64,000 nt of DNA from Acidobacteriota bacterium (lineage in GTDB: Bacteria; Acidobacteriota; UBA6911; RPQK01; JADFOI01), in assembly GCA_963663035.1 (NCBI GenBank), contig OY760074.1:2976001-3040000 (forward strand). The letters are read 5' to 3'. This document shows, piece by piece, positions 15,152-63,746 of the stretch (within the stretch, counting starts at the first letter, position 1; the number at the start of each line of letters is the position of its first letter). The translations under genes and the position numbers were made by a program. The notes under the pieces are model-generated. The model had not been told where the DNA came from, ran no database searches, and worked only from the letters and a program-made list of their open reading frames with translations.

Positions 15152-15158
15152 CCCGCCC

Positions 15159-18228: not shown

Positions 18229-18581
18229 GAGTCAAGACCACAGATCCCATCTGGTGGGCACTGTTTTCAGCAGGGGGAACGCTGGCCGCTTTTCTCCTAC
18301 CGGCTCACGTTCTCCTCACAGGAGTGGGAATCGCCTTTGGCTGGGTTTCCCCACAGATCCTCGCTTACCAGCGCCTCATCATCTTACTGGAGCATCCTCT
18401 TTTAAAGATTTACCTCTTTCTCCTGATCTCGCTGCCGCTTTTTCACTGGGCCCATCGCTTTCGATTCGTGTTGATGGACCTGGGACTCAGGAATCTGAAA
18501 ACTCCTGTTGCAGTCCTCTGTTACGGAGGGGCTGTGGCGGGGACAGTCCTGGCAGGTCTCTTGCTCTTCGTCTCCATCTAG
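18219..18581 (+). CDS. frdD: Fumarate reductase membrane subunit D
   Basis: DPIWWALFSAGG, LPLFHWAHR; E. coli FrdD-like. Confidence 0.87.
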   Translation: MAVRVKTTDPIWWALFSAGGTLAAFLLPAHVLLTGVGIAFGWVSPQILAYQRLIILLEHPLLKIYLFLLISLPLFHWAHRFRFVLMDLGLRNLKTPVAVLCYGGAVAGTVLAGLLLFVSI

Positions 18582-18712
18582 CCCGCTGCTCTCACACCAG
18601 GTCGTCGCGAAGCGGCGAAAGGACCGGCCTGACAAGGCGCTTGCGGGTCGCGGAACGCAGTCAGGTCAGATCATTGCGCCGATGCAGTAGAGCGGGCGTG
18701 AGAAGTGCGGGC
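18581..18712 (+). mobile_element. Structured repeat family A, copy A1 (132 bp, shortest form)
   Basis: Terminal IR gcccgc..ctcacacc / gtgagaagtgcgggc; core ctgacaagg..aacgcagtcag; first G completes the frdD TAG. Confidence 0.9.
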
Positions 18713-18719
18713 TCAGCCA

Positions 18720-20047
18720 TCAGTTGGGAAGGAAGATGTAGCGAAGAACAAACAGAACCGCAAAAAAAGAAATCAGAGCTGGCACTTCTTTAAATCTCCC
18801 CTCGACGGCCTTCAGCAGAGTGTAGGAGATAAATCCAAATGCGATGCCTTCGGTGATGCTGAAGGTCAGCGGCATGATCAGAATCGTCAGAAAAGCGGGA
18901 ATGGCCTCGCTGATCTGATCCCAATCGATACGCTTGACATTTCTCAGCATCAGGCAACCAACCATGATCAGGGCTGGAGCAACCACAGGATAAAGGACAA
19001 GACCTTCCCCGCTGTCCATCCCGCCCCCGATCATTTTCACCAGCGGTGTGAAGAAAATGGCAAGCAGGAACAATGTTCCCGTCACCATGTTGGCCAGTCC
19101 AGTCCGAGCACCGGCGCTGACCCCACTGGCACTCTCAATATAGCTCGTGACCGTAGAGGTTCCCAGGAGGGCGCCCGCCGTCGTACCCACGGCGTCGGAC
19201 AGCAGTGCCCAGCGCGCGCGGGAGGCTTCCGTCGGGCGCCAGAAGACCGGCTTCCTGAGTCACTCCAATCAATGTTCCAACCGTATCGAAGAGATCCAAA
19301 AAGAAGAATACGAAGATGATCGAAAGGATTCCCGCCTGGAAAGCACCCACCAGGTCCAGCTGGAAGAAAGTGGGTGCAATGGATGGCACGGGCCCAACAA
19401 GCCCCTCATACTCAATCATGCCTGTCCCCAGTGCTACCAGGAGGGTCATGAGGATTCCCAGGAGAATGGCCGTCCGCGCGCCCAGCGTGAGTAAGATTGC
19501 CATCAGCACCAGACCAAAGAAAGAGAGCAGCACCGGTGGTGAAGTCAGCTCCCCAAGCCCCACCAGGGTTCCGGGGGAATCCACCACAATACCGCTCCAC
19601 TCCAGTCCCACCACAGAGATCAGCAGGCCAATACCCACCGCAATCGCATTTTTTAGTGTAGAGGGAACGGCCTTGATTAGCCTTTCCCGGAGGCCAATGA
19701 AGGAGAGTAGGATAAAGAGTACTCCGGAGATGAAAACGGCTCCCAATGCTTCCTGCCAGCTATAGCCAAGAGTCAGAACCACGACATAGCTAAAGAAGAA
19801 ATTATGGCCCATGCCTGGTGCCAAGGCGATGGGATAGTTGGCCGCTAGCCCCATCACAAAGGTCGCCAGGGCACTGGCAATGCAAGTAGCGACCATGGGC
19901 CGACTCCAGATTCATCCCGGCCGCATTCATGACCACCGGCTGCACGAAAATGATGTAGGCTGACGTCATGAAGGTCGTCAGTCCTCCCGACATCTCGCGC
20001 TGTAAAGTGGTCTTGTTCTCCGTCAGCTTGAAAAGCCGTTCCCACAT
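18720..20047 (-). CDS. NCS2/AzgA-family purine permease, split by two frameshifts (probably sequencing errors)
   Basis: Three ORF pieces join into one permease (GLTTFMTSAYII, NYPIALAPGMG, DLFDTVGT, TSYIESASGV, MPLTFSI). Extra base in the GGG run near 19897; 2 nt missing in the (CG)n run near 19212-19220. Confidence 0.85.
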
Positions 20048-20220
20048 CAGGTTTCGAAAAGACAGTAAACGCAGTCCCCTATGATAACTTTCAGAGCATT
20101 GGGCCACCATCAGCAACTTGGGGAACTGCTCCTGTTCCCGGCATCCAAGCGAGTTGAAAGTCTACCGCGGTTTGGAGGCAACGACCAAGGGGTAAAAGAG
20201 TAGGGGTAAACCATCGATAG

Positions 20221-23259: not shown

Positions 23260-23286
23260 GATGAGAAAAACACTTATAATTAGAAC

Positions 23287-23904: not shown

Positions 23905-24581
23905 TCTTGGGCGGTAGGACCCTGATTGACAATGATGTAGACCGCTCCCTGCTCCTTGGCCGAGCGAGGCACAGAGGCCGCCGGTTCCACTTCAAGAGTG
24001 GATCCAATGGCGAGAACCAGGTCGGCACGGGAGGCGGCCGAGAAGGCCTCCCTCAATTTTTCATGAGGCATGGCCTGTCCGAAGGAGATGGTAGCCGGTT
24101 TGAGGAAACCTTCACACCGACAAAGTGGAGGCTCACGGGTGCGTTCGAACTCCTCAAAAATGGAGCTCGGATCAGAGAGCTGGCCACAAGTCTGGCACTC
24201 AATCTTCCGATTGGTGCCGTGCAGCTCGATGACTCTGTCCTCAGAGTGTCCGGCCAGCTGGTGTAGTCCATCAATATTCTGTGTGACCAGTACTTCCAGA
24301 CGTCCCATCCCGTCTAACTCGAACAGGGCAAGGTGGGCTGGATTGGGTTCGGCGTCGCGAAACTGATGCCACCCCTCGAGTTTGTAGTCCCAGTGGCGGA
24401 TGCGTGCCTCGCGCGAGGTCATAAATTCATCGTAGTAGACGGGCCGCCATGTTTTCCACAGACCCTGAGGACCTCGGAAGTCGGGAATGCCCGACCCGGT
24501 TGAGATACCTGCCCCAGTAAAAATAAGGACTCGACGGGCATCACTGAGAAGGCTGGCTACTTGATTTGACTTAGCCCGCAC
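23817..24581 (-). CDS. cobB: NAD-dependent protein deacylase (Sir2 family)
   Basis: TGAGISTGSGIPDFRG, TQNIDGLH, ELHG, CxxC..CxC; GTG start lies inside repeat A2. Confidence 0.92.
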   Translation of the reverse strand: MRAKSNQVASLLSDARRVLIFTGAGISTGSGIPDFRGPQGLWKTWRPVYYDEFMTSREARIRHWDYKLEGWHQFRDAEPNPAHLALFELDGMGRLEVLVTQNIDGLHQLAGHSEDRVIELHGTNRKIECQTCGQLSDPSSIFEEFERTREPPLCRCEGFLKPATISFGQAMPHEKLREAFSAASRADLVLAIGSTLEVEPAASVPRSAKEQGAVYIIVNQGPTAQDQLADLRIEGDATTVLPAALRELLKLIRR

Positions 24582-24726
24582 TTCTCACACCCCCTCTACT
24601 GCAGCGGCGCAATGATCCGACCTGACTGCGTTGCGTTCGGTCGGCCTCCTCAACGTACTCAAGAGTACGTTTGCGGGGGTCGACCCTTCCGCCGCTTCGC
24701 GACGACCTGGTGTGAGAAATGCGGGC
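24574..24726 (-). mobile_element. Structured repeat family A, copy A2 (153 bp)
   Basis: IR gcccgcacttctcacacc / ggtgtgagaaatgcgggc; flanks TTA and TAA; carries the aacgtactcaagagtacgtt hairpin. Confidence 0.93.
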
Positions 24727-24734
24727 TAACATCG

Positions 24735-26635: not shown

Positions 26636-26731
26636 CTCTAACCAGTATATATACTAACCATTTCCTGAGACCTAGTTCTAATTGAAAACAAAGAAAAGTC
26701 TTTTTCTACCAGTGGAAAGACGCAGGAAAGA

Positions 26732-29236: not shown

Positions 29237-29259
29237 TTCTCAACCTTGGGGAACCTTTC

Positions 29260-31158: not shown

Positions 31159-31163
31159 GATAA

Positions 31164-31315
31164 GTCCGCATTTCTCACACCCGCTCTACTGCATCGGCGC
31201 AATGATCCGCCCTGACTGCGTTGCGCGACCCGCACGGAGCGCGGGTACCCCTCGCGCGCCTTGTCAGGCCGGCCCTTTCGCCGCTTCGCAACGACCTGGT
31301 GTGAGAAATGCGGGC
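31164..31315 (-). mobile_element. Structured repeat family A, copy A3 (152 bp)
   Basis: IR gtccgcatttctcacacc / ggtgtgagaaatgcgggc; flanks TAA and TGA; 5 bp from the rimP -35. Confidence 0.93.
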
Positions 31316-31331
31316 TGAAGGCCAGACATCC

Positions 31332-39974: not shown

Positions 39975-40081
39975 GCCCCGTCAGAAGAGACAGGAACAAC
40001 CGAAAGCCCCCCCCACAGGGCCCGCCAATGTGCCCTTTGCCCTTTCATGCTCTCGTGCTAAGGTGAGAGTTCTGGCTAAAA

Positions 40082-40289
40082 GCCGGGATTATGCATAGGT
40101 TCTCGTAACGAAGTGGCGCAAGCGCCGCGATGACAAGGCGTGCGAGGGGTACCCGCCACGGGTCGGGCCCCGCAGGCGTACTCTTGCAGTACGCCGAGGA
40201 GCCCAAGGGGTACCCGCTTGCGGGTCGCACAACGCAGTCAGCGTGGATGATTGCGGCACTGCAGTAGAGAATTTATGCATACTCCCGGC
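40082..40289 (+). mobile_element. Structured repeat family A', copy 1 (208 bp)
   Basis: IR gccgggattatgcata / tatgcatactcccggc; core tgacaagg..caacgcagtca shared with family A; followed by TAA. Confidence 0.92.
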
Positions 40290-40317
40290 TAAGACATACC
40301 CCGAGTCAAGGGCACTC

Positions 40318-42561
40318 ATGCAGCCTTCGAAAAAAGACTATCTGAGCCATCTGAACGAACAGCAGAGATTTGCTGTCACCCAGACCGAAGGCCCAATGCT
40401 CATCCTGGCGGGAGCCGGGAGTGGAAAAACCCGAACGATCACTTACAAAATCGCCCATCTGATTGAGCAGGAAGTCTGCCGACCTGATCAAGTCCTGGCT
40501 GTGACCTTTACCAACAAAGCCGCTGAGGAGATGAGAAGTCGAGTCGAAGACTTACTGAAACATCTGGGTACTTCTCCTTTGGTTTGCACGTTTCACTCTT
40601 TCAGCGTTCGCGTGCTGCGGCGCTACGCTGACCTTATTGGGTATCGTACGGACTTCAGCATCTGTGACAGCGACGATCAGAAAAGGGTTATCAAGGCTGT
40701 CTACGAAGAACTCCACTTCACGGACAGCCAGCTCCCCATGAGAAAAGCTCGGGCGGCCATCAGTCGAGCCAAAAGCAATAACTGGGCCCCAGAAGAGTAT
40801 CTCGACAAGTCATCTGATCTCGCCCGCGAGGAACTTTCTCTCATCTACACCGCTTATGAGCGCTTTCTTTTGCGATCCAATGCCATGGATTTTGATGACC
40901 TGATCCTGCTAACCGTGCGCTTGTTGAAAAAGAACCATGAGGTTCGACAGAAATACGGTGAGTCCTACTCCCGTGTTCTGATTGACGAGTATCAGGATAC
41001 CAATCGTCCTCAGTATGACCTGATTAAGAATCTTACCGAGGTTCACCACAACATTACGGCTGTGGGAGACGATGATCAGTCCATCTATGGCTTTCGAGGC
41101 TCTGACATTGGAAACATTTTGCGCTTTGAAGCGGACTTCCCGGGAGCGACCATTGTCAAACTCGAGCAAAACTACCGCTCTAGTCAGAACATTCTGGATG
41201 CTGCAAGCAGCCTGGTGTCCAACAACCTGAATCGGAAGGGGAAAGTCCTCTGGACCGATCAACAGGCCGGTCAGCCAATCGAACTCTTCGCGGCGCCCGA
41301 CGCCAAGACTGAGGCAACTTTCGTTTCGAAGAAGATCCGCGAGCATCTCCAGAAGGGAGAAGAGGGGCTCGCCGTTTTGTATCGAACCAACTTCCAATCC
41401 CGACAATTTGAGGAAGCCTTTAGACGGTATGAGATTCCCTACAAGCTGATTGGAGGGACCAGTTTCTATCAGCGGAAAGAGGTCAAGGATGCACTGGCTT
41501 ACCTGCGAGTGGCCATGAATCCCAATGATAATGTCTCTTTCTTGAGGATTATGAATCGCCCCACACGAGGGATCGGCAAAGTGACAGAGGATCGCCTTCA
41601 TGGCAAGGCGCGAGATGAGCAGACAACCCTCTGGGAAGCCCTTCGAAAAGGCATAGAAGAGAACACTTTTCCCTCCCGAACACACCTGGTGTTGCAGCGT
41701 TTTTTCGAGCTCATATGCGAGTGTCAGGGCTTCCTGGAACTCCCTCTGTACCTATCCCTGGAAAAAATTCTGGAAGCCTGCGGCTATATCAAAGCCCTCA
41801 GGAGCGAGGATTCGGAAGAGGCTCATAATCGGACTCTGAATTTGGAAGAGTTGATCCTGCTGGCCAAAGAAAATGCAGAGCACGGATACACTTTTCAAGA
41901 GTTTCTCGACCACGCCGCGTTACGCTCCGAAGCGGACGATTATGACGAATCGGCAGCGGTCAGCCTCATGACCTTACACAATGCCAAAGGTCTTGAGTTT
42001 CCCATTGTTTTTCTAGTCGGTTGTGAAGAAGGACTCTTCCCACACAGCCGATCGGTGGCTGAGGATGATCTGGAGGAAGAGCGCCGCCTTTGTTATGTGG
42101 GGCTAACCCGGGCACAGAAGAAAATCTACCTCACCTATTCCCGTCTGCGTCGGTTTTTCGGCCGGGAGGGAGAAGAAATAAATCTTCCCAGCCGATTCTT
42201 ACAGGAGATTCCAGAACATCTCATCCGCGTCTCCTCCGGCCCTTTTCCGGTCGGTGAGTTTGTCCACCCCAGTGCCAGTCTTGGAGGATACCTGCAACGA
42301 CAAAAGCGTACCGGGACAGGTTTTGCAAAGACCCACGATTCAGTAGACAGCGTTCAAGGATTCTTGAACGAGCTCTCTCAGAAAAAAGGCAAATCAAAAA
42401 GCAATTTCATCTCCGGCGCGAGAATTGTCCACGAGAAGTTCGGTTACGGACAGATCCTTCGGGTCCAGGACACCGGCGACGACTTGAAGCTCACTGTACG
42501 ATTTCCGGGCCAGGGCATTAAACGGCTGCTACAGAGCTATGCCAAGTTGAAGCTGGTTTAG
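40318..42561 (+). CDS. pcrA: UvrD/PcrA DNA helicase
   Basis: LAGAGSGKT, TFTNKAA, IDEYQDTN, VGDDDQSIY, LEQNYRS, TLHNAKGLEF, EERRLCYV, C-terminal Tudor-like domain. Confidence 0.93.
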   Translation: MQPSKKDYLSHLNEQQRFAVTQTEGPMLILAGAGSGKTRTITYKIAHLIEQEVCRPDQVLAVTFTNKAAEEMRSRVEDLLKHLGTSPLVCTFHSFSVRVLRRYADLIGYRTDFSICDSDDQKRVIKAVYEELHFTDSQLPMRKARAAISRAKSNNWAPEEYLDKSSDLAREELSLIYTAYERFLLRSNAMDFDDLILLTVRLLKKNHEVRQKYGESYSRVLIDEYQDTNRPQYDLIKNLTEVHHNITAVGDDDQSIYGFRGSDIGNILRFEADFPGATIVKLEQNYRSSQNILDAASSLVSNNLNRKGKVLWTDQQAGQPIELFAAPDAKTEATFVSKKIREHLQKGEEGLAVLYRTNFQSRQFEEAFRRYEIPYKLIGGTSFYQRKEVKDALAYLRVAMNPNDNVSFLRIMNRPTRGIGKVTEDRLHGKARDEQTTLWEALRKGIEENTFPSRTHLVLQRFFELICECQGFLELPLYLSLEKILEACGYIKALRSEDSEEAHNRTLNLEELILLAKENAEHGYTFQEFLDHAALRSEADDYDESAAVSLMTLHNAKGLEFPIVFLVGCEEGLFPHSRSVAEDDLEEERRLCYVGLTRAQKKIYLTYSRLRRFFGREGEEINLPSRFLQEIPEHLIRVSSGPFPVGEFVHPSASLGGYLQRQKRTGTGFAKTHDSVDSVQGFLNELSQKKGKSKSNFISGARIVHEKFGYGQILRVQDTGDDLKLTVRFPGQGIKRLLQSYAKLKLV

Positions 42562-42832
42562 TGTCTCGTCCCATGTATACCCAGATGTTTGCTGATGGGG
42601 CTTGGGAGGGGAGATCAAGGAGCGAGGAGGAGGTGATGCCGGGACATCGACGACGACGAGCGACGCAGAGATCGCCCGCAACCCCCATCAGCCCGAAGGG
42701 TGGCGGCGGGACGGCATCGATTTCTTTGTCGCTCCTCCTCCACGATGTCACTGACATCGCGTCGTCGTCGCTTCGCGAACTCGACGCCGTCGCGTTCGCC
42801 ACAAACGTCATGGTATTCATGGGACGAGACAC
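42561..42832 (+). mobile_element. Structured repeat family B, copy B1 (272 bp)
   Basis: 21-bp IR gtgtctcgtcccatgtatacc / ggtattcatgggacgagacac; internal homology to B2-B4; begins on the pcrA TAG. Confidence 0.92.
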
Positions 42833-42836
42833 TGAA

Positions 42837-42860
42837 GCCCGCCTTATGCATAATGCGGGC
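42837..42860. repeat. 24-bp collapsed A/A'-type palindrome
   Basis: gcccgccttatgcataatgcgggc: A-type outer ends around the A' TTATGCATAA core. Confidence 0.75.
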
Positions 42861-42886
42861 TAGTACTGAGGTTATAAGGTTTTTCA

Positions 42887-44400: not shown

Positions 44401-46050
44401 ATGGCCGAAGTAAAGAAGTTTCTGACATCCAAACAGGGAATCACTTTCCTGGCACTTTTCATCACTCTGCTGCTGGGAATCACCATTGGGACCCTTGTTT
44501 CCGATCGCGTGCTGAGTGCCCAAGAGAACGAGGCTCCGGTGGCGCTGTTAAAGATTCAAGGTGAAGGGTTGCCCTTGCTCTTAGATGAGACAGACTTTCT
44601 GGGGAAAGGATTTGCTCTGATCGCCAAGACCGTTGAGCCTGCCGTTGTCAACATCAGCACCACGGCGATTATCCGCACCAACACTCCGCAGCAAAGAGGG
44701 ACTCCTGAAGACCTTCGAGACTTTTTCGGAGAGGATTTCTGGGAGCGCTTTTTCGGACCCATGGCTCCTCAGGAGAGGAAGACAACCAGTCTGGGCTCAG
44801 GCGTGATCGTGGACAGCAGCGGATATGTCCTCACCAATTACCACGTAGTGGCTCCCTCTGTTACCCGTCAGGGTACGAGACGAATTGCTGACAAGATCGA
44901 AGTCAAGCTGTCCTCCGGCGAGACCTACCTGGCACGAATCGTCGGGGGAGATCCTGAGTCGGATCTGGGAGTTTTAAAGATCAATGCTCCTGACCCCTTA
45001 CCCTTTGCCAAGGTGGGTGACACCTCGAAGATGCAAGTCGGCGACTGGGTACTGGCCATTGGGAACCCATTCGGAGTCGGTCAGACCGTCACTTCAGGTA
45101 TCGTTTCGGCTACAGGACGGGTGATTCCCACCGCTACGATTTTTGGCGACTATATCCAAACCGACGCGGCCATTAATCCGGGAAACAGTGGTGGCCCGCT
45201 GGTGAATGTGCGCGGTGAGGTTATCGGAATCAACACCTTCATTCTCACCCGAAGCGGTGGCTCCCAGGGAGTGGGATTCTCGATTCCCTCCTCGGTCTTT
45301 ATCAATTCTTACAACCAGCTTGTGACCAAAGGAAAGATTGAGCGGGGCTGGCTCGGGGTCACCATGAACTCCTATCCGTTGTCCGAGGAGCTCAGTGAAT
45401 TCTTTGGTGTCGCCGGGAATGATCCCACGGGAATTCGAGACGGAGACGGAGTTCTCATAACCCAACTCATTGATGAAAAGGGCTCCCCTGCTGAGACCGG
45501 ACCCGCTTACCTGGCCGGCATGCGGGCCGAAGATGTGATTGTAAAGTTTGGGGACCGGGAGACCGAGATCACCTTTGATGTGCGTGTAGCAGTGGCTAAT
45601 ACTCCCCCAGGGGAAGTCGTTCCCGTGACCGTGGTTCGAAAAGGGGAAGTCCTGAATCTGACCGTGACACTGGCGGAAAGAACTCTTGACCAGCAGGAAC
45701 AAGAGGATACCGGACTTTCTTTCGAACAGCAAAGAGAGGAAGAACGAGACAAGGAAATCGGCCTGGAGTTCGAAACGCTGTCGGCTCAAGATGCGGAAAG
45801 ACTGAATATAGAAGACGAGAGAGGAGTGCTGATCCGTGACGTAGCTCCCGGGAGCTTGGCCGATGAAGCCGGGCTATCTCGTACTCAGGTGATTACCAAT
45901 GTCAATGGCATTCCCGTGAGTACTGCCCAACAGTTGTACGACCAAATCAATTCCATGGACTCCGGTGCCGGCGTTGTTCTTCGTGTGATTTGGCTGACCC
46001 CGCAAGATCGGCGACTCAATATCGGCTATGCTGCATTCACAAAGCCTTAG
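44401..46050 (+). CDS. HtrA/DegP-family serine protease with two PDZ domains
   Basis: LGSGVIV, TNYHVV, SDLG, QTDAAINPGNSGG; GGAGG before ATG 44401. Confidence 0.93.
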   Translation: MAEVKKFLTSKQGITFLALFITLLLGITIGTLVSDRVLSAQENEAPVALLKIQGEGLPLLLDETDFLGKGFALIAKTVEPAVVNISTTAIIRTNTPQQRGTPEDLRDFFGEDFWERFFGPMAPQERKTTSLGSGVIVDSSGYVLTNYHVVAPSVTRQGTRRIADKIEVKLSSGETYLARIVGGDPESDLGVLKINAPDPLPFAKVGDTSKMQVGDWVLAIGNPFGVGQTVTSGIVSATGRVIPTATIFGDYIQTDAAINPGNSGGPLVNVRGEVIGINTFILTRSGGSQGVGFSIPSSVFINSYNQLVTKGKIERGWLGVTMNSYPLSEELSEFFGVAGNDPTGIRDGDGVLITQLIDEKGSPAETGPAYLAGMRAEDVIVKFGDRETEITFDVRVAVANTPPGEVVPVTVVRKGEVLNLTVTLAERTLDQQEQEDTGLSFEQQREEERDKEIGLEFETLSAQDAERLNIEDERGVLIRDVAPGSLADEAGLSRTQVITNVNGIPVSTAQQLYDQINSMDSGAGVVLRVIWLTPQDRRLNIGYAAFTKP

Positions 46051-46317
46051 TACTCCCTTTCATAAATACGGTGACGTTTGCGGAAGGGGCTTGCGAGGCG
46101 AGATCGCGAAAAGAGGAGGAGGCGATGCAGGGCCATCGACGACGACGAGAGACAAAGAGATCGCCCGCAACCCCCTTCCGCCCAAAGGGTTGGGGCGGGA
46201 CGTGCCCATCTCTTTGTTTTCCTCCTCGCCGATGTCTCTGCATCGACTCGTCGTCGGGCCTCGAGCTGGGCCCGTCCCGCTCCCAACAAACGTTACCTTA
46301 TTTATGACGGTGAGTAC
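46050..46317 (+). mobile_element. Structured repeat family B, copy B2 (268 bp)
   Basis: About 31-bp imperfect IR gtactccctttcataaata / tatttatgacggtgagtac; TTA on both sides; begins on the htrA TAG. Confidence 0.93.
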
Positions 46318-46346
46318 TTAAGTACTCAGTGCCCAATGATGCACCT

Positions 46347-50844: not shown

Positions 50845-50850
50845 TTATGA

Positions 50851-50874
50851 GCCGGGCTTATGCATAAGCCCGGC
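50851..50874. repeat. 24-bp perfect palindrome, collapsed family A' element
   Basis: gccgggcttatgcataagcccggc flanked by TGA and TAG; equals the two A' ends fused at TATGCATA. Confidence 0.85.
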
Positions 50875-50897
50875 TAGAGGAGTGTTCAAAGACACTT

Positions 50898-52664: not shown

Positions 52665-52711
52665 GCGAGAGCCTAGTGTCGCTTCCCGATTTCTGGTTCG
52701 AGGTTCTGGTG

Positions 52712-52833: not shown

Positions 52834-52846
52834 ACAAGAGACTGCA

Positions 52847-53586: not shown

Positions 53587-54410
53587 GATACCTTCCATTG
53601 CTTCTCTTCCTCTTTCAACCTGCTCTGGTCTTCTCCCAGCAGCGACCCCTGGTGACGGAACGCGCGGAGACAGTCACACGGGGTCATATCCTTTTCGATA
53701 TCGGCCTCGAGTTCCTTCAGGATGCTGTTTTTGCTTTCTCAGGGCTGGAAGGGGATTTGACCAGAATCGGGGTGCTGGGGGCCCGCATCGGGGTGGCGGA
53801 TAACGTTGAACTTCAGGTTCTGGGAACCATCCAGAACACCCTAAACATCGAGAATCGCTTTCCGGCTCCCAACACCCCTCTCCTGAACTTCACGGGAAAC
53901 TCCACCAACGATGTGGGAGATTTTACCATGGCCACCAAAGTGCGCCTCACAGAAGAGGGGGAGAGGTGGCCGGCCATAGCGTCTCGGTTCGGCTTTAGCA
54001 TGCCCAATGCCTCCAACGAAAATGGGTTGGGTAATGATGAAATCGATGTCTTTTCCAGTCTTTTGTTTCAAAAGCACTTTGGAAAGCTTCAGGTTTTCAC
54101 GAATCTGGGCTTGGCCATCTTAGGAGACCCGGTTACCCCCGGAGCTCAAGACGACCTGTATACCTATGGCCTGGCAGGACTGTACCCGCTTGGTGACGGG
54201 ATCAATCTGGTGGTAGACGCTTATGGGCGGGTAGGAGCCGGAGGGATCGGGACCGAGGAGCAAACAAGGCTTCGCCTGGGGACCCAGATCAATGCGGCTG
54301 GACTGGTTTGGGATGTGGCCCTGGCCGTGGGTTTTCGAGACACAGATCCTTCCAGGGGACTCCTGCTAGGCGTGTCGAAGGACTTCAACTTCCCCCTGCT
54401 TGTGCGCTAG
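53583..54410 (+). CDS. Putative outer-membrane beta-barrel protein
   Basis: Signal peptide, RPLVTERAET, GDFTMATK, alternating beta-strand pattern. Confidence 0.65.
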   Translation: MRYLPLLLFLFQPALVFSQQRPLVTERAETVTRGHILFDIGLEFLQDAVFAFSGLEGDLTRIGVLGARIGVADNVELQVLGTIQNTLNIENRFPAPNTPLLNFTGNSTNDVGDFTMATKVRLTEEGERWPAIASRFGFSMPNASNENGLGNDEIDVFSSLLFQKHFGKLQVFTNLGLAILGDPVTPGAQDDLYTYGLAGLYPLGDGINLVVDAYGRVGAGGIGTEEQTRLRLGTQINAAGLVWDVALAVGFRDTDPSRGLLLGVSKDFNFPLLVR

Positions 54411-54806
54411 CGGGTGTTCAGGGAGGTCAGGATCGAGGCCGCACAAGCCCTTCGACCGCAGGCGTAGCCAAAGTACTCCCTTTCATCAATACGGCAACGT
54501 TTGCGGGTGGGGCTTGCGAGGCGAGGTCGCGAAGGGAGGAGAAGGCGATGTCAGGGACATCGACGACGACGAGAGCCAAAGAGATCGCCCGCAACCTCCA
54601 TTCGCCAAAAGGGTTGGGACGGGACGGGCCCATCTCTTTGTTGCTCCTCCTCGGCGATGTCAGGGACATCGACTCGTCGTCGCGCCTCGATCTGGGCTCC
54701 GTCGCGTTCCCAACAAACGTTATCGTATTGATGAAAGTGAGTACTAAGCTACGTCGAGGATCGAAGGGCGCGGAGAACGAAGAGCCTGGCCTTCCTGGAC
54801 ACCCGC
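54410..54806 (+). mobile_element. Structured repeat family C, copy C2, interrupted by B3
   Basis: 54410-54472 and 54745-54806 rejoin to match C1; 22-bp terminal stem; GCTA on both sides. Confidence 0.9.
54473..54744 (+). mobile_element. Structured repeat family B, copy B3 (272 bp), nested in C2
   Basis: IR gtactccctttcatcaatacg / cgtattgatgaaagtgagtac; flanks AAA and TAA. Confidence 0.93.
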
Positions 54807-54811
54807 GCTAA

Positions 54812-55019
54812 GCCCGCATTTCTCATACCAGTTCGTCACGAAGCGGCGGAAGGGACGGCCTGACAAGGCGCGCGAGGGGTTCCCGCTTGCGGGTCGACCC
54901 CCGCAAACGTACTCTTGAGTACGTTGAGGAGGCCGAGGGGTTCCCGCTTGCGGGTCGTGCAACGCAGTCAGGTCGGATCATTGCGCCGATGCAGTAGAAC
55001 GGGTGTGAGAAGTGCGGGC
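54812..55019 (+). mobile_element. Structured repeat family A, copy A4 (208 bp, fullest form)
   Basis: IR gcccgcatttctcatacc / ggtgtgagaagtgcgggc; two copies of gaggggttcccgcttgcgggtcg around the aacgtac..gtacgtt hairpin. Confidence 0.93.
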
Positions 55020-55020
55020 T

Positions 55021-57729
55021 TTAACTGCAACCTGAGGTACTGCCACAGACAGTGCAAATGTAGCAGTTGCCATTCCGCTGCATCAGATTCCCGCAAGTCA
55101 GGCAGGTGTGGGATTCTCTGGCACTATCCTGAATCAGCCGCTGGGCGGCACGGGTGGCCTCGGGCAAAGCAGCCTGGTCCGAGAAAGTCACCTGTACGCC
55201 GCCCTGGACACTACCATTCGGTTTCACGTTGTGGATTCCCAGGGCTTCCTGAACCTCAAGGCTGAGAAATTGGGTGGCCAGAAAACGGACCACATAGTCG
55301 GGAATTGAGGTGGCGAACGGAATTTGAGTATTGTCGGTAAATCCAGCAGGCTCGAAACTCATATGAGCAAAGATCCGCACGTAGTCCTCCAGTGGCACAC
55401 CACGCTGCAGGCCCATTGAGATGGCAACGGCCCAAGCCATGGTCATGCCCTGGAGAGTGGAGCCTTGTTTGGCAAAATTGAGGAAGATTTCACCCAACTG
55501 TTTGTCTTCCGGGTACATACCCATGGTCAGATAACCCTTGAAGCCCTTGATTCGAAACTCGTGCTGCAGGGCCGGGTGATCCTTGGGCATGTTGCGTTGC
55601 TGCGGTACGTTCACCGGTTGAAGTTTTTCCTTGTTAGAGAGCGGCTGTACCATCTTGCATCCATCGCGATAGATGGACACTGATTTCATCCCGTGTCTCC
55701 AGCCCTCAATGTAGGCCTCCATGATCTCTTCCACCGAGGCCTCGTTGGGGAGATTAATGGTCTTGGAAATAGCGCCCGACAGAAAGGGCTGAACGGCTCC
55801 GCACATCTTAATGTGTCCAAGATATTGAATGGAACGACTTCCCATGGCAGGCCGATCAGCACAGTCAAAAACGGCTACGTGCTCCTCTTTCAAGTGAGGG
55901 GCACCCTCGATCATCTCCTGCTTCTCGACATACTTCAGGATTTCGTCGATCTCTTCCTGCGGATAGCCCAGTCTCTTGACAGCTCGAGAAATCGTGTTGT
56001 TCACGATTTTCAGGTTTCCTCCACCCACCAGTTTCTTGACTTTAACCAGTGAAAAGTCGGGCTCCACACCCGTTGTATCACAGTCCATCATGAAGGCAAT
56101 GGTCCCGGTGGGAGCCAGGAGGGTGACCTGGGCATTTCGGTATCCATGCTCGGAACCCTCCACGATAGCCTGATCCCACGCCTCCATAGCGGCGTGCAGA
56201 AGCTCCATGGGAACCAAGGCAGAGTCGATTCCAGAGAGAGCTTCCCGATGCTTATGAATGACGCGCATGGTGGTAAGCCGATTTTTCTCAAAGCCAGCGA
56301 AAGCGCCCTTCTGCTCGGCGATCTCGGCACTGGTCAAATAGGCCTGACCGGTCATCAGAGCTGTAATCGCAGCAGAGAGATTCCGAGCTTGATCACTATC
56401 GTAGGGAAGGCCGGAAGCCATCAGCAGCGCACCCAGATTGGCAAATCCCAACCCCAAAGTCCGGTAGTCGTGGCTGATTCTCGTGATTTCCGGGGTGGGG
56501 TAGGAGGAGTTGTCAACAATGATCTCCTGCGCCAGGATCATGATTTGAACTGCTCGGCGGAAAGCCTGAATGTCGAATTGACCCTCCTCCTTCACGAACT
56601 TCATCAGGTTCAGCGAGGACAGGTTACAGGCTGAATTGTCCAGGAAGACGTATTCTGAGCAGGGATTGGAGGCGTTGATGGGGCCACTATTGGGACAGGT
56701 GTGCCAGTCATTCAGGGTCGTGTAGAACTGAAGACCTGGATCGCCACAAATCCAGGTTGCCTTTGCGATCCACTGCATCATCTCGCGGGCTTTGTAGGTA
56801 TCAACTACCTCACCACTTGTGACCTTACAGGTTTTCCATTCTTTTTCATTGACCACGGCCTCCATAAACTCGTTGGTCACGCTGACACTATTATTGGCAT
56901 TTTGAAACTGGACGCTCTGGTAGGCTTCTCCATCGATGGAGTCGTCGTATCCGAGCTGGATCAGTTTGTGAGCCTTTTCTTCCTCCCGAGCCTTACTCCA
57001 GATATATTCCTTAATATCCGGATGATCCGCGTTTAGAATGACCATCTTAGCGGCTCTTCGTGTGGCTCCGCCCGACTTGATGGCCCCGGCAAAACTGTCA
57101 TACCCTCTCATGAAAGAAACGGGTCCTGAAGCAAAGCCCCCCACGGCCAAGGGCTCCACTGAAGAACGGATATTCGACAGGTTCACACCGGAACCAGACC
57201 CTCCTTTGAAAATATGGGCCTCGGTTTTGGCCAGCTTCATGATGGAGCCCATATTGTCTTGGACGCTATTGATAAAGCAGGCCGAACACTGAGGATTCCT
57301 CTTGATACCCATGTTGAACTGTACCGGGCTATTGAAGGCGGCCATTTGATGCAGAAGTAAATAAGACAGCTCGTGAGTGAAGGTTTGAGCATCCTTAGTG
57401 GAGGCGAAGTAGTTCCCCTTCTTGCCCCAAACGGTCAGGGTGTCAACAATCCGCCCGATGAGCTGCTTGACACTGTGCTCCCGCTTGGGACTTCCGAGAT
57501 GACCACGGAAATATTTGCTGGCTACTATGTCCGTCGCCCGTTGGGTCCAAAATTGAGGGAATTCCAGGTCCTCTTGTCGAAAAGCGATCTTGCCAGTTTC
57601 AAAATCCTTGATTTCGGCGGTCCGAGTCTCCCACTTGACATCGTCAAAAGGGTGTCTTCCCTTTTGGCTAAAGTAGGGTTCGATGGTGAGACCAGTAGAC
57701 ACTTCCGCTTTCCCGACAGCCTTTTTCAT
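55021..57729 (-). CDS. nrdJ: Class II adenosylcobalamin-dependent ribonucleotide reductase
   Basis: FNSP, PQCSACFI, ASNPCSEY, APTGTI, GAISKTIN, TSCPD-like domain, C-terminal CxxC..CxxC. Confidence 0.95.
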   Translation of the reverse strand: MKKAVGKAEVSTGLTIEPYFSQKGRHPFDDVKWETRTAEIKDFETGKIAFRQEDLEFPQFWTQRATDIVASKYFRGHLGSPKREHSVKQLIGRIVDTLTVWGKKGNYFASTKDAQTFTHELSYLLLHQMAAFNSPVQFNMGIKRNPQCSACFINSVQDNMGSIMKLAKTEAHIFKGGSGSGVNLSNIRSSVEPLAVGGFASGPVSFMRGYDSFAGAIKSGGATRRAAKMVILNADHPDIKEYIWSKAREEEKAHKLIQLGYDDSIDGEAYQSVQFQNANNSVSVTNEFMEAVVNEKEWKTCKVTSGEVVDTYKAREMMQWIAKATWICGDPGLQFYTTLNDWHTCPNSGPINASNPCSEYVFLDNSACNLSSLNLMKFVKEEGQFDIQAFRRAVQIMILAQEIIVDNSSYPTPEITRISHDYRTLGLGFANLGALLMASGLPYDSDQARNLSAAITALMTGQAYLTSAEIAEQKGAFAGFEKNRLTTMRVIHKHREALSGIDSALVPMELLHAAMEAWDQAIVEGSEHGYRNAQVTLLAPTGTIAFMMDCDTTGVEPDFSLVKVKKLVGGGNLKIVNNTISRAVKRLGYPQEEIDEILKYVEKQEMIEGAPHLKEEHVAVFDCADRPAMGSRSIQYLGHIKMCGAVQPFLSGAISKTINLPNEASVEEIMEAYIEGWRHGMKSVSIYRDGCKMVQPLSNKEKLQPVNVPQQRNMPKDHPALQHEFRIKGFKGYLTMGMYPEDKQLGEIFLNFAKQGSTLQGMTMAWAVAISMGLQRGVPLEDYVRIFAHMSFEPAGFTDNTQIPFATSIPDYVVRFLATQFLSLEVQEALGIHNVKPNGSVQGGVQVTFSDQAALPEATRAAQRLIQDSARESHTCLTCGNLMQRNGNCYICTVCGSTSGCS

Positions 57730-57843
57730 TAATTTCTTCCCTTCCAAGGATTAGGTTCCGGGTTATCCGGTGCGGCCCATTCTAGATGGGGACCCTGACG
57801 ATCCAGACATCACCAGAACCGATCTCTCAAAAATCTCTTTGAA

Positions 57844-57891
57844 GCTCAGGATATAGCGGTTATTTCACTACAATTATACTAAATATGGTGT
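57844..57891 (-). promoter_or_regulatory. Tandem NrdR boxes overlapping the nrdJ -10 (TATAAT at 57878-57873)
   Basis: acaccatatttagtat (57891-57876) and ccgctatatcctgagc (57859-57844), 32 bp apart; match acaCwAtATaTwGtg. Confidence 0.8.
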
Positions 57892-57897
57892 TGTTAA

Positions 57898-58101
57898 GCC
57901 CGCACTTCTCACACCCGTTCTACTGCATCGTCGCAATGCCTCGACCTGACTGCGTTGCACGACCCGCACGCCAGTGCGGGTACCCCTCGCGCGCCAGTCG
58001 GGCCCGCAGGCTTTAGCCTGCGGGCCCGTGGGCTAAAGCCCACGGCTCTGTTTTCCGGCCCTTCCGCTGCTTCGCTACGACCTGGTGTGAGAAATGCGGG
58101 C
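57898..58101 (-). mobile_element. Structured repeat family A, copy A5 (204 bp) with REP-like insert
   Basis: Family A IRs; TAA on both sides; extra double hairpin at 58000-58045. Confidence 0.93.
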
Positions 58102-58386
58102 TAAGCGATCGACGAGTTCCTCTCTTGAGAGCCCTCGGATTGTGACAGTTTTATTGCGGGAATGCTGTCCTTGGATCAGGGAGAGATTTTTGGCAGGCAA
58201 CTCCAAAGAGCGGGCCAAGAAGCTCAGAAGTTCACGATTGGCACGGTCTTTCAGGGGAGGAGCAGCCAGGCGAACCTTCAAGGCGCCATTGTATGAACCG
58301 CTGATTTGGCTCTTCGCCGCTAGTGGCTGGACCCGCACTGGCAACAGAAGCATTCCCGATCTTTCGCTGATCTCTACCTCATCCAT
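58075..58386 (-). CDS. DUF167 (YggU-like) protein
   Basis: VRVQP, LKVRLAAPP..RAN, GQHSRNK; last codons lie within A5. Confidence 0.9.
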   Translation of the reverse strand: MDEVEISERSGMLLLPVRVQPLAAKSQISGSYNGALKVRLAAPPLKDRANRELLSFLARSLELPAKNLSLIQGQHSRNKTVTIRGLSREELVDRLARISHTRS

Positions 58387-59068: not shown

Positions 59069-59108
59069 AGGCGTAAGTATACCGAATTGCCTGTGGTAGT
59101 ATGCACTT
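59069..59108. promoter_or_regulatory. Back-to-back -10 elements for leaderless yggS and tmk
   Basis: TGgTAGTAT 6 nt before the tmk GTG; TATACT on the minus strand 7 nt before the yggS GTG; no SD. Confidence 0.55.
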
Positions 59109-60754: not shown

Positions 60755-61394
60755 GACCAATAAGACAACTGCCAACCTTTTGGCCCGTGACGTAGAGCTG
60801 CGGGTAGGTGATCGCTGCATCGTGAGCACCAAGCGGGGGGTTGAGCTGGGTCTTGTGATCAATGGACGCAAGGCTGAGAATCTTGATCTGGGTGAGTCCA
60901 AAGTGAATAAGGCTCTGAGGAAAGCGACTGAACGGGACCTTTATCTTCATGAGAAGAAGAAAGACCAAGAGGCTCACGCCCAGCAATTATGCAGGAAATT
61001 GATTAGAGCCCAGAAGCTCCCCATGAAGCTCTCCAAAACTGAGTATATCTTTGACGGCAGCCGGGTCATTTTCTATTTTACCTCAACGCGGCGTGTTGAT
61101 TTTCGAGAGCTGGTGAAAGGCTTGGCTCGTCGATTGCGGGCCCGAATCGAAATGCGCCAGATTGGTGCACGTGATGAGGCCAAGTTAATTGGTGGAATGG
61201 GGTGCTGCGGTCTAGGTGAAAACTGCTCTGCCAAGTTCTTGAAGGAATTAAGATCTGTCAGTGTCCGGGCAGCCAAGGAACAAGGTCTGACGGTGAACCC
61301 TGGCCGTTTATCCGGCATGTGTGGGCGACTGAAGTGCTGCCTGAATTATGAGGTCAATGCTACGGGCAGCTGTGGGAGTGGAGCCTGCGGTTAG
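60726..61394 (+). CDS. ricT: PSP1-domain / RicT (YaaT)-like protein
   Basis: RVDFRELVK, RIEMRQIGARDEA, SGMCGRLKCCLNYE; tmk-holB-ricT synteny. Confidence 0.88.
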   Translation: MLEIVTVKFETNKTTANLLARDVELRVGDRCIVSTKRGVELGLVINGRKAENLDLGESKVNKALRKATERDLYLHEKKKDQEAHAQQLCRKLIRAQKLPMKLSKTEYIFDGSRVIFYFTSTRRVDFRELVKGLARRLRARIEMRQIGARDEAKLIGGMGCCGLGENCSAKFLKELRSVSVRAAKEQGLTVNPGRLSGMCGRLKCCLNYEVNATGSCGSGACG

Positions 61395-61663
61395 TGCTCA
61401 CTTCCATAAATACGGTGATCTTTGTTGCGGCCGCTGCGCCCACGGATTCAAGGCGCTCCGACGAGTCGATACGGAAAATCGGCGAGGAGAAGCAACAAAG
61501 AAGACGGGGGTGCAGCGCCGCAACCCTTTGGGCGGAGGGGGGTTGTGGTCGATCTCTTCGTCGCTCGTCGTCGACGATGTCCGGACATCGCCTCCTTCTC
61601 GCTCCTCGACCTCGCCTCACAAGCCCCCTCCGCAAATGTCACCCTATTTATGGAAGGGAGCAC
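61394..61663 (-). mobile_element. Structured repeat family B, copy B4 (270 bp)
   Basis: IR gtgctcacttccataaata / tatttatggaagggagcac; fills the gap between two convergent TAG stops exactly. Confidence 0.92.
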
Positions 61664-62104
61664 CTAACCCTCTCCTTCTGTGGCTTTCTCGTTTTCTTCT
61701 TTCAGTTTCTTGCCCCACTCTTGAAAACGCTCCACCTCAGCCGAGGAATGATTGCTCTCGACAAATTGTTCGCAGACTTCTATCGCCTCCAGAAAGGCTT
61801 TTTGCTTCTCTAAGGCCCGAATCAGTTTCTCATAGGCTTCTGCCCACTTAGGGTTATATGTCACCGCCTGTCGGTACCTCTCCGCTGCAGCCTTGAAGTT
61901 GTCACGGCGGTAGTAGAAATCGCCGACTTCTACATGCTCTCTAGCCTTCAGGGGGTCAGGTTCGGGAGGAGTTTCCTGAACCTGCTCATCCGTGGGATCC
62001 ACCCGAATGAGCACTGGTTTCCTCTTGGATTGCTGTTCCTGGCCCAACAGAGGACAAGCAAGAAGCAGGAGAAAAAAGGCATGAAAATAGATGAAAGACC
62101 TCAT
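61664..62104 (-). CDS. Secreted TPR protein
   Basis: Signal peptide, VGDFYYRRDNFKAAAERYRQA TPR. Confidence 0.8.
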   Translation of the reverse strand: MRSFIYFHAFFLLLLACPLLGQEQQSKRKPVLIRVDPTDEQVQETPPEPDPLKAREHVEVGDFYYRRDNFKAAAERYRQAVTYNPKWAEAYEKLIRALEKQKAFLEAIEVCEQFVESNHSSAEVERFQEWGKKLKEENEKATEGEG

Positions 62105-62117
62105 CTGTTAAGAAGTC

Positions 62118-62146
62118 AGTTTATTTCACTTTTTACCTCTTGTCAA
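62118..62146 (-). promoter_or_regulatory. Sigma-70 promoter of the TPR gene
   Basis: TTGACA, 17 bp spacer, TAAACT. Confidence 0.7.
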
Positions 62147-62257
62147 AACTGAAAGAGGATGCTAGGCTATGTGTCAGTAAGCTTTTTCAAGCATCTGAAC
62201 CTTTATCAATTGTCCGTCTAACGTTGAGGGAGAGGGTTTTTTCTGAGGTAGATCGTT

Positions 62258-62620
62258 ATGGTTAACCGGAAACTAATTCGTCCGTCGCTGTCCAATCTGC
62301 GAGAGCAACCACCGTCGAAATACGTTGAGAGCCAAAGAAAGAGGGTGCCTCCAGAAGGGACCAATGCCGAGCAGTACTACTATCTCAAGCAAATGTCGAG
62401 CAAGACCCCGATGGTGGTAACTCTGCTTGACGGTGAGGAAATCTTCGGAATGATTGAATGGTATGACAAAAGCTGCATCAAAGTGAACCGGGAAACCAAG
62501 CCGAACTTGCTCATCCCAAAACACGTCATCAAATATATCTACAAAGAAAACGAAGTCAAAGAATTTGGCGGAAACGTCATATTCGAGAGCGAGAGTGAGA
62601 GTGAGAGTGAGAGTGAGTGA
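62258..62620 (+). CDS. Hfq-like Sm-fold RNA chaperone with acidic (ES)n tail
   Basis: TPMVVTLLDGEEIFGMIEWYDK (Sm1) and LLIPKHVI (Sm2-like). Confidence 0.75.
   Translation: MVNRKLIRPSLSNLREQPPSKYVESQRKRVPPEGTNAEQYYYLKQMSSKTPMVVTLLDGEEIFGMIEWYDKSCIKVNRETKPNLLIPKHVIKYIYKENEVKEFGGNVIFESESESESESE
62585..62617 (+). repeat. Hexamer microsatellite (GAGAGT)n encoding the ES tail
   Basis: gagagc gagagt x4 gag, then the stop. Confidence 0.9.
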
Positions 62621-62626
62621 GATGAA

Positions 62627-63616
62627 ATGAAGCAGGCTGAACCCGTGAAGGGGTTTCCCGTCGTTTTCTCGACAGGGGATCCTCATGGGATCGGCCCAGA
62701 AGTCATCCTGAAAGCACTTCCCAGATTCCTCGCCTCGCAAACCATTCACCCTATTATTTTTGGAGATGCCAAGTACCTCAAAGGACTTCGGCAGGACCTG
62801 GGTTTGTCTCCAGATCTGGATCAGGTGGAGGTCATCACGGCTGCTCATTATGACTATCCTCCCGCCTGGGGGAAATTGGAGGAGAAAGCCGGCCACTTTG
62901 CCCTGCAGTGCTTGCGCCGCGCCGTCCAGTATTGCCGAGACAAAGGTCTCCCACTGCTGGTGACCGGACCAATCAACAAGAAAGCCACCCATCTTGCGGG
63001 ATCTGCCAATCCAGGTCAGACTGAGGCAGTGGCCTCCTTTTTCCCGGACAGTGAGCCGGTCATGACTTTTTTTTCAGATCGCCTGCGGGTTCTTCTCCTC
63101 ACCGTTCATATTCCTCTGCGGGAAGTCCCGTCAGCCCTCGACCCCGATGAGCTGGTGCGCAAGACCGAGGCTTTCCTTGAAGCCCTGCGCTCGATTGGAA
63201 TTCCTCAGCCTCGACTGGCTCTTTGCGGTCTGAACCCTCACGCTTCCGAGGAAGGTCTATTTGGTGAAGAGGAGCAAACCGTTCTCGAGCCTGCCGTTCA
63301 AATCTTGAACCAAAGGCACGGTTCCGACACAGTCACTGGCCCTTTTCCTGCCGACACGATTTTCCGTAGAGCCCTTGCAAACGAATTTGACGGTGTCATC
63401 GCCTTATACCACGACCAGGGGCTGATTCCTCTGAAACTGGTGGCATTCGAATCTGCAGTCAACGTGACCCTGGGTCTTCCACTGCTACGAACCTCCCCTG
63501 ATCATGGGACCGCCTTTGAAATCGCAGGACTTGGTGTCGCCGATGCCCAAAGCATGGGTGCGGCCATTGAATGGGGAATCCGGCTGGCTAAGCCTAGAAG
63601 CCGGGATTATGCATAG
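62627..63616 (+). CDS. pdxA: 4-hydroxythreonine-4-phosphate dehydrogenase
   Basis: GDPHGIGPE, TGPINK, GLNPHA, PADT, YHDQGL, RTSPDHGTAF. Confidence 0.93.
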   Translation: MKQAEPVKGFPVVFSTGDPHGIGPEVILKALPRFLASQTIHPIIFGDAKYLKGLRQDLGLSPDLDQVEVITAAHYDYPPAWGKLEEKAGHFALQCLRRAVQYCRDKGLPLLVTGPINKKATHLAGSANPGQTEAVASFFPDSEPVMTFFSDRLRVLLLTVHIPLREVPSALDPDELVRKTEAFLEALRSIGIPQPRLALCGLNPHASEEGLFGEEEQTVLEPAVQILNQRHGSDTVTGPFPADTIFRRALANEFDGVIALYHDQGLIPLKLVAFESAVNVTLGLPLLRTSPDHGTAFEIAGLGVADAQSMGAAIEWGIRLAKPRSRDYA

Positions 63617-63746
63617 GTTTTCGTGACGAAGTGCCGCTGGCGCCGCGATGACAAGGAGCCCAAGGGGTACCCGCTTGCGGGTCGCACAACGCAGTCAGCG
63701 TGGATGATTGCGGCACTGCAGTAGAAAACTTATGCATTATCCCGGC
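63600..63746 (+). mobile_element. Structured repeat family A', copy 2 (147 bp, internally deleted)
   Basis: IR gccgggattatgcata / tatgcattatcccggc; near-identical to 40082-40289 minus the central modules. Confidence 0.93.

Follow-up and report, generated by a model that had tools for sequence, protein, structure and literature searches.

Short intergenic hairpins of high copy number, with inverted-repeat ends, TA-containing insertion sites and a habit of abutting or supplying stop codons, are well known in bacteria as the Correia, ERIC and RUP elements, which are MITEs (miniature inverted-repeat transposable elements). Among other mobile DNA, the piggyBac transposons have TTAA as their target and CCC...GGG as their tips, groups of the IS5 family and the PIF/Harbinger elements, together with their MITEs, make 3-bp TNA duplications, and some insertion sequences (ISs) target the hairpins known as repetitive extragenic palindromes (REPs). 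Here we describe the dispersed hairpin elements, of families termed A, A', B and C, found in a window of 64,000 nt (the whole stretch of DNA that was analysed), which corresponds to bases 2976001-3040000 of the single-contig 3.59-Mb genome (G000) of an Acidobacteriota bacterium (assembly GCA_963663035.1, contig OY760074.1). They are like Correia, ERIC and RUP in all the traits just given, and differ from them in sequence, in host phylum and in the transposase family on which they would depend. The elements of the window are bacterial MITEs, ordinary in kind and new as families when set against Rfam and the literature. Most probably, they are non-autonomous DNA transposons that have built up in layers in a marine Acidobacteriota genome rich in ISs, and in which A and A' are moved in trans by DDE transposases of the IS1380 type.

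Fifteen elements had been placed in the window by an earlier sequence-only reading, and all of them were recovered by repeat finding, direct reading and BLAST of the window against the genome. The only further repeat is a short, low-copy one at 580-671 of the window, with up to six genome matches. Genome-wide copies were counted with nhmmer on both strands, the hits being merged into loci, and this bore out the dispersed families. There are 203 A/A' loci (39.1 kb), 109 of them bounded on either side by A' ends and 53 by A ends, together with 53 B loci (12.2 kb) and 37 pieces of C in approximately 25-26 loci, and the families together make up 1.5% of the 3.59-Mb genome. The 64-kb bin that holds most of the window carries 15 elements, the genome maximum, the mean per bin being 5.1. 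The elements of all four families measure 120-280 nt, reach a high copy number, occur in both orientations and are devoid of any transposase gene. Matches to A' were present in all six congeners and in 12 of the 14 genomes of the same family that were searched. None of the Rfam 15 covariance models matched the window at the gathering threshold, and the two matches found at E <= 1 between positions 40000 and 64000 were at chance level and lay on no element. A partner family can now be named for two of the four families. A scan of viral contigs with the A' and B end patterns, restricted to exact matches, gave 0 stretches for each. In the genome as a whole, ISs are abundant: a 1643-bp IS1380 element is present in about 30 copies, a 1267-bp IS3-type element in about 47 and a 1380-bp IS256-type element in about 22. 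An element of about 1340 bp, which has a 403-aa open reading frame (ORF) and adjoins apparent tRNA 3' ends, has about 11 copies, and there are four IS5-like copies. The IF-2 protein of this genome finds its nearest counterparts with a name in Acidobacteriota and Bryobacteraceae metagenome-assembled genomes, at 59-62% identity.

End motifs were paired genome-wide in order to find longer elements with the same ends. A'-like ends were found to bound the 1643-bp element at 28 loci among the matches listed, two of the copies being 1621 and 1609 bp long. Its 464-aa protein matches Pfam PF13701 (E 8e-152) and NCBIfam transpos_IS1380 (NF033539; E 1e-119), and a protein search of the whole genome returned 30 near-full copies of this transposase, almost all of them identical at 100% and all of them outside the window. 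That the window is free of transposase genes, as had been claimed, agrees with the IS-sized repeats and with PF01609 and PF01797, none of which revealed one there, other transposase families having been scanned less than exhaustively. The resident IS has one end that is the same, at 18 of the first 21 bases, as the right end of A'1 (40078-40293, plus strand), a long A'-type MITE of about 212 nt. Relatives of this IS in a congener (G003) and in G026, whose transposases are 72-74% identical to that of the resident IS, have ends of the form CTAG|CCCGGATTATGCATAA, which match the left end of A' at 14 of the first 15 bases and are thus closer to it than the resident IS is. An IS1380-family IS in G030, from another family of the order, has a transposase of 38-41% identity and ends of the form CTAG|CCCGCATTTCTCAC, and its end gave BLAST matches of 17/17 to the right end of A2 (24570-24731, minus strand) and of 15/15 to A4 (54809-55024, plus strand). 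On these end comparisons, A and A' carry the terminal inverted repeats of IS1380-family ISs.

The comparison with the IS1380 family (e.g. IS1247, ISEcp1 and ISPme1) draws on the available parts of PMC3281130 and PMC9330008. A and A' have its terminal inverted repeats with CC...GG tips, and the related ISs encountered here are 1.64-1.77 kb long, with one transposase ORF of about 460-515 aa and a 4-bp target duplication. A and A' differ in their length of 135-220 nt, in having no ORF and in sharing only the terminal bases, some 15-21 of them. The strict CTAG/CTAA target seen here was not met in the parts of PMC3281130 and PMC9330008 that were available, and the duplication given there for IS1247 is 5 bp (PMC3281130 Table 2, from the same parts). 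Neither IS1380-family MITEs nor MITEs of this lineage were found described in those parts of the full-text literature that could be reached. The sequence-only reading had proposed non-autonomous elements mobilised in trans, and this is consistent with an IS of about 30 copies with A'-like ends, with near-exact A' ends and exact A ends in other genomes, and with sites that vary among congeners. The partner families that it had put forward, IS5, IS4, IS630, IS1182 and HUH, did not include IS1380, the family to which the ends of A/A' point. Two large MITE families would thereby be tied to IS1380, a transposase group best known for the movement of resistance genes and for its kinship with piggyBac.

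The target word was analysed in the ISs and in the MITEs. In all 28 of the IS copies of about 1.6 kb that were listed, CT precedes AGCC and AG follows GGCT (...CT|AGCC...GGCT|AG...). One of these copies interrupts a repeat that has intact paralogues elsewhere, and these (48 flank matches) have a single CTAG; a duplication of 0, 2 or 4 bp at such a site gives an identical string. The IS copies of G028 are informative in this respect. Among the 18 with both ends, 13 are flanked by CTAG/CTAG, two by CTAA/CTAA and three by unequal words, giving direct 4-bp repeats in 15 of 18, and since CTAA is not its own reverse complement, the CTAA/CTAA copies show a true 4-bp duplication, with CC...GG tips, for the ISs. 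The flanks of A and A' are pieces of a 4-base YTAR word (CTAG, TTAG or CTAA), as in ...CTAG|CC...GG|CTAG.... Among the 167 A/A' loci for which both ends are available, CTAG stands on the left in 57 and on the right in 49, and a left-hand YTAG is combined with a right-hand CTAR in 43, all this in a genome in which CTAG occurs at 0.21 times the uniform expectation. IS1380-type DDE transposases would accordingly be expected to move A/A' in trans by insertion at CTAG or related YTAR words, with duplication of 4 bp of the target. In this, A and A' would resemble piggyBac and its miniature derivatives, which likewise have a palindromic, TA-centred, duplicated target of four bases and ends that begin with CC(C), and they would differ from piggyBac in a CTAG/CTAA instead of a TTAA target and in their bacterial host. 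A relationship between IS1380 and piggyBac is made use of in PMC10813416, as far as its available text goes.

The same word accounts for the contacts with genes. Because CTAG, TTAG and CTAA hold TAG or TAA on one strand, elements inserted at them will show both the flanking 'triplets' of the sequence-only reading and contacts with stop codons. That reading had described TAA/TTA/TAG/TGA-like triplets throughout, which holds for B, where a 3-bp duplication is real, and not for A and A', where the target is the 4-base YTAR word; the exact duplications it had noted, TTA at B2 and TAA at A5, are present in the flanks. The fusion with stop codons was also seen, as the stop of an ORF of at least 120 codons lies between -7 and +16 nt from an element end at 9 of the 15 window elements. 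An insertion on the stop of a gene would keep the reading frame closed and so would survive, which explains why many elements touch stop codons. The pile-up on stop codons thus has a simple reason, in that the target word holds a stop and the duplication keeps it. Any effect of the elements on neighbouring genes is something that we can only infer.

The individual elements illustrate these contacts. A1 (18578-18715, plus strand) is a short A-type MITE of about 136 nt, with CTAG as its left and CTCA as its right flank, and an ORF of 199 codons has its TAG stop, the last base of which is 18581, within the CTAG flank. A2, an A-type MITE in the orientation opposite to A1, lies between TTAG and CTAA, and A3 (31159-31318, minus strand) is likewise of A type. 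A4 is a long A-type MITE with the TAA stop of a class II ribonucleotide reductase gene at its right end. A5 (57894-58104, minus strand), which is of A type with extra internal hairpins, has TAA on both flanks. A'2 (63598-63750, plus strand) is a short A'-type MITE, and an upstream ORF of 331 codons stops at a TAG 16 nt inside its inverted repeat. B1 (42561-42838, plus strand), a B-type hairpin MITE with the GTGTCTCG variant of the end, lies on the TAG stop of a UvrD-type helicase gene, and B2 (46046-46320, plus strand), with its exact TTA duplication, on that of an HtrA-like protease gene. B4 (61391-61666, minus strand), a B-type MITE in the opposite orientation, has ORF stops (TAG) at both of its ends. 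C1 (52702-52840, plus strand) is an intact C hairpin, composed of a 122-nt core and the conserved left flank GGTTCTGGTG. C2 (54410-54806, plus strand) is a C hairpin split at its apical loop into halves at 54410-54473 and 54744-54806, and position 54410 is also the last base of the TAG stop of an ORF of 298 codons. The B-type MITE that splits it, B3 (54470-54748, plus strand), is flanked by AAA and TAA, one mismatch away from a 3-bp duplication. Direct reading upheld this nesting of B3 in the loop of C2 and the abutment of A4 on C2. The two remaining elements are the scars reported at 42837 and 50851, which are indeed 26-nt palindromes, and for which no strand applies: S1 (42836-42861) consists of two A/A' ends joined at a TATGCATA core and S2 (50850-50875) of two A' ends, the latter being present also in the strain of run X4.

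Folding was compared with that of shuffled sequences on single strands, and gave z-scores of -8.2 for A'1, -9.5 for B2, -7.9 for C1 and -2.6 for the short A1. Side hairpins were present in the folds, in line with the branched interior that had been described. The common interior of A and A' is imperfectly palindromic and about 72% identical between them, and their inverted repeats differ in the inner half. A and A' are therefore one interior cassette with two kinds of end, and each kind corresponds to an IS1380 clade of its own. Both fall into a short length class of 120-160 nt and a long one of 200-240 nt, and the two classes differ by a central module, which lies between internal direct repeats in the long form and is lost in the short one.

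B is an imperfect hairpin of 270 nt. Its duplication was examined at 21 loci whose two ends were both found by pattern, from among 46 loci that reach 150 bp or more; six of the 21 have an exact 3-bp duplication, 14 are one mismatch off and the remaining one departs further. TTA, TAA and TGA make up most of the triplets, and the exact duplications include TGA and GTA, neither of which equals its reverse complement. B1, B2 and B4 each lie on the TAG of a TTAG, the first G of the element completing the stop codon. C is a 122-nt hairpin with a conserved extra flank on the left, found intact at 12 loci, four of which stand in tandem with a 168-bp period at 662815-663450 of the genome. At 11-12 of the approximately 25 C loci, B lies exactly in the apical loop of C, and the uninterrupted C paralogues represent its empty site. 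The inner B-C junctions differ among most of the composites (TTA, TGA, GTA and TAA), which points to repeated, independent insertions of B into the C loop. Three C-B-C composites, in contrast, have identical inner junctions, with B 99.3-99.6% identical, and different outer flanks, which indicates that a C-B-C composite can move as a unit. On this reading, B takes TTAG stops and, with great frequency, the C apical loop as its landing sites, and the C-B-C composites can move again as units by their C ends.

Candidate partners for B and C were considered among the other repeats of the genome. The IS3-type (about 47 copies), IS256-type (about 22), 403-aa type (about 11) and four-copy IS5-like elements were rejected, since their ends are unrelated. 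A 1545-bp piece bounded by B ends and a 1609-bp piece bounded by A' ends were rejected as parents, being MITEs interrupted by IS3-type and IS256-type ISs. Protein coding by B was also discounted: a Shine-Dalgarno-like GGAGGAGG and an ATG open a frame of about 62-66 codons, and among 23 loci the copies use two frames, several of the copies having stops, with a flat diversity by codon position (0.089/0.098/0.075 and 0.131/0.115/0.155). B is like the IS5 groups and PIF/Harbinger in its 3-bp, mostly TNA, duplication and in its long inverted repeats; however, the only IS5-like IS of the genome, with its four copies, has ends unrelated to B, and no transposase gene with B ends was found in this genome or in five relatives.

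We then compared the window with the syntenic regions of five congeners (G001, G003, G004, G005 and G006), which align with it at 73-83% in genes. Sites were found empty or differently filled for B2, C1, S2, A2, A3, A5 and the C2/B3/A4 cluster, which speaks for mobility. There is no B at the B2 site in any of the five congeners, and in G004 and G006 the gap is a plain spacer of 85-88 bp that begins with CCTTAGGAGCC. C1 is absent from the orthologous site in all five, and S2 from the orthologous spacer in all four congeners that have the region. G005 lacks A3, its orthologous spacer having 43 nt between the flanks. At the A5 site, G005 has no element and G003, G004 and G006 have other elements. 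The C2/B3/A4 cluster is absent from all five congeners, its spacer being occupied by a plain hairpin in G005, by other repeats in G003 and G004, by a short A in G001, and by an A fragment together with A' in G006. The repeats of G003 and G004 in this spacer, which is orthologous to window positions 54410-55026, are palindromes of the AGGGACAG...CTGTCCCT type, not seen in the window, so that the genus must hold more such families. The A2 spacer has no A-type element in any of the five congeners and is empty in G001, G003 and G004; at a nearby CTAT site within it, G005 has a full A' and G006 a 26-nt palindrome at the same position. B1 behaves differently, as orthologues are present in G001, G003 and G005, with end remnants only in G004 and G006. 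S1 does not follow B1 in G001, G003 or G005.

The same comparison explains the scars, of which there are nine as 26-nt palindromes genome-wide. In sequencing run X11, a contig about 99% alike joins position 40088 to position 40273, so that A'1 is replaced by a 26-nt end-to-end palindrome. With this contig and with the G005 and G006 alleles of the A2 spacer, the scars can be recognised as collapsed full A' elements. The TATGCATA core is self-complementary and consequently reads in the same orientation, as a direct repeat, in both A' ends; a scar is what is left once a full A' has been stripped of all that separates its two TATGCATA copies. The full element, the short form and the 26-nt palindrome thus make a natural series of shrinking palindromic repeats. 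Contig joints showing C without B (54456-54746 and 54467-54758; runs X4, X11 and X13) possibly derive from other C loci, and were not used. The runs that contain the window stretch have either coded host labels or marine sediment and seawater metagenome labels. In RNA run X19, the presence of the organism is evident from contigs on genes, with 0-1 differences from the window, and those on A', A and B have 5-11 differences and may be other copies or DNA; the X19 contigs therefore do not show transcription of the window copies. The elements had been described as active or recently active, which finds partial support. The closest pairs of independent A/A' copies are 97-98.7% alike (the median nearest neighbour being 94.7%) and the IS copies 100%, and the one difference seen within the species, at A'1 in X11, is a collapse and not a new insertion. 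One A' pair is 100% identical because both copies ride on a duplicated 9.27-kb segment, present at 257832-267102 and at 3585413-3594683, the latter being the end of the contig. The elements and the approximately 110 IS copies together explain why relatives in this lineage assemble into hundreds of contigs.

Several observations tell against the account set out above. The genome has no IS1380 copy with exact A or A' ends, and no second IS1380 lineage was found in it with either transposase as query; tblastn with the transposase of the G030 type gave only matches of 27-28% identity, to the resident IS. The homology between MITE and IS ends after the terminal 15-21 or so bases, and the interiors have no match to IS sequences. 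G001, G002, G005 and G006 are rich in A' yet gave no IS1380 transposase match (E <= 1e-20), G001, G002 and G006 being fragmented assemblies of 440-570 contigs and G005 one of 10 contigs. The flanks of A/A' are identical 4-mers on both sides at only 14 of the 167 loci, all of them CTAG, and the frequent flank pairs CTAG/CTAA (16) and TTAG/CTAG (10) do not form direct repeats. Only one orthologous site is clean; there the allele with the element (G005) has CTAG...CTAT and the empty one CTAT, and three close A' copies at different loci share TGTAG...CTT flanks. Decay, conversion, or a carry-over of donor flanks such as is known for piggyBac may each have caused the unequal flanks. MITE pairs of 97-98.7% set beside IS copies of 100% give no sign that the present IS burst moved the MITEs. 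No transposase gene with B or C ends was found in this genome, and none with B ends in five relatives, where the B-end pattern occurred only in pairs 100-270 nt apart. The enzyme that would move A/A' in this genome is thus one that we infer from the ends, and we nevertheless regard an IS1380-type transposase acting in trans as its most probable identity.

The last of these observations concerns B, which is far more conserved between species than would be expected of neutral DNA, a result that plain selfish-DNA decay does not predict. The orthologous B1 copies of four species are 84-90% alike, compared with 58-66% at the third codon positions of the two flanking genes. B copies elsewhere in the congeners match B1 at up to 96%, dozens of them at 88-95%, when the syntenic genes stand at 73-83%, and one non-orthologous B copy of G005 (96%) is closer to the B1 of the window than is the G005 orthologue (86%). 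In the B hairpin 90.8% of cells are paired, and double changes fall in 16 of 109 pairs, compared with 4-8 in shifted controls; a strand bias of G-T over A-C pairs (196 and 62) was dropped, as the list of pairs came from folding that same strand. A' is unlike B in this respect, its best match across species being 88% and its median nearest neighbour within the genome 94.7%. Such conservation of B might result from selection, from conversion between its copies or from transfer between species that occur together. It is possible, though we hold it only tentatively, that B, and perhaps the interior shared by A and A', is a 270-nt hairpin kept nearly unaltered genus-wide by selection on its entire sequence and structure, self-maintaining or recruited by the host, and parked on stop codons. 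Separately, enzymes of the IS1380 type, as kin of piggyBac, may in this genome drive large MITE families that have a strict CTAG target. Should the conservation of B reflect function, it would add a new case of a mobile hairpin that has been recruited.

A related proposal would have the elements, B above all, kept by the host, or by themselves, as functional gene-end hairpins, be they terminators, mRNA stabilisers or binding sites for protein or RNA, with purifying selection behind their conservation and mobility as their origin only. The likeness of the orthologous B1 copies relative to third codon positions, the non-orthologous B copies at up to 96% of B1, the double changes that preserve pairing in B, the single interior that A and A' hold under two end types and the contact of 9 of 15 elements with stop codons would all fit. 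However, G004 and G006 retain no more than end remnants of a decayed B1, and among the window elements with readable orthologous sites B1 is the only one common to the congeners. The elements also lie in both orientations and are without a match in Rfam, and the RNA contigs on them, differing at 5-11 positions, may be other copies or DNA. Conversion among some 50 copies, or exchange between co-occurring species, could moreover mimic constraint. We thus consider such a role for the elements unlikely, and mobility driven by transposases in trans the better account.

Whether B, too, is moved by an IS1380-type transposase was considered from its ends. The inner, binding part of the inverted repeat would then be common to B and the resident IS and the tips would differ, and positions 10-18 from the tip of B (TTCATAAAT) do equal positions 10-18 of one resident-IS end, a likeness that was read by eye, without statistics; in addition, no other candidate partner was found. 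In contrast, however, B makes a 3-bp duplication where the IS1380 relatives make one of 4 bp, and the tips differ (GTAC in B, CCCGG in the IS). A 3-bp TNA duplication is, moreover, typical of some IS5-family groups and of PIF/Harbinger. It is thus distinctly improbable that the transposase proposed for A/A' also serves B.

That the repeats are palindromes of the REP or bacterial interspersed mosaic element (BIME) type, spread by a REP-associated tyrosine transposase (RAYT; Y1/HUH) and not derived from DDE transposons, is scarcely credible, since, although the elements are palindromic and intergenic and the genome has two PF01797 (Y1_Tnp) matches, the A/A' ends equal those of IS1380-family ISs, the elements at 120-280 nt are much longer than REPs (20-40 bp) and have DDE-type ends and flanking duplications that set them outside that class, and the Y1 gene at 346 kb is flanked by a different short repeat and not by A, A', B or C. 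This gene, at 346000-347100 of the genome, encodes a 161-aa Y1_Tnp protein (PF01797, E 9e-31) and has on both sides a short palindromic repeat, CTCCGGAGCCCCGAAGGGGCGACAGG..., with which it looks like a separate RAYT/REP system. The likeness of the window elements to REP/BIME is that of intergenic palindromes in general, and the insertion of B into the C loop resembles the targeting of REP hairpins by some ISs.

Three repeats of other kinds were noted within genes of the window. A 2005-bp stretch at 655-2659, within a gene for an HD-GYP/cyclase-domain protein, has a second copy at 1979927-1981931 of the genome. An 18-nt tandem repeat of about six units lies at 10367-10485, within a 946-aa ABC-transporter-auxiliary gene. 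Finally, two direct repeats of 121 nt, 99% alike and spaced 147 nt from start to start, were found at 15631-15898, in a 631-aa ORF that extends from 15123 to 17018.

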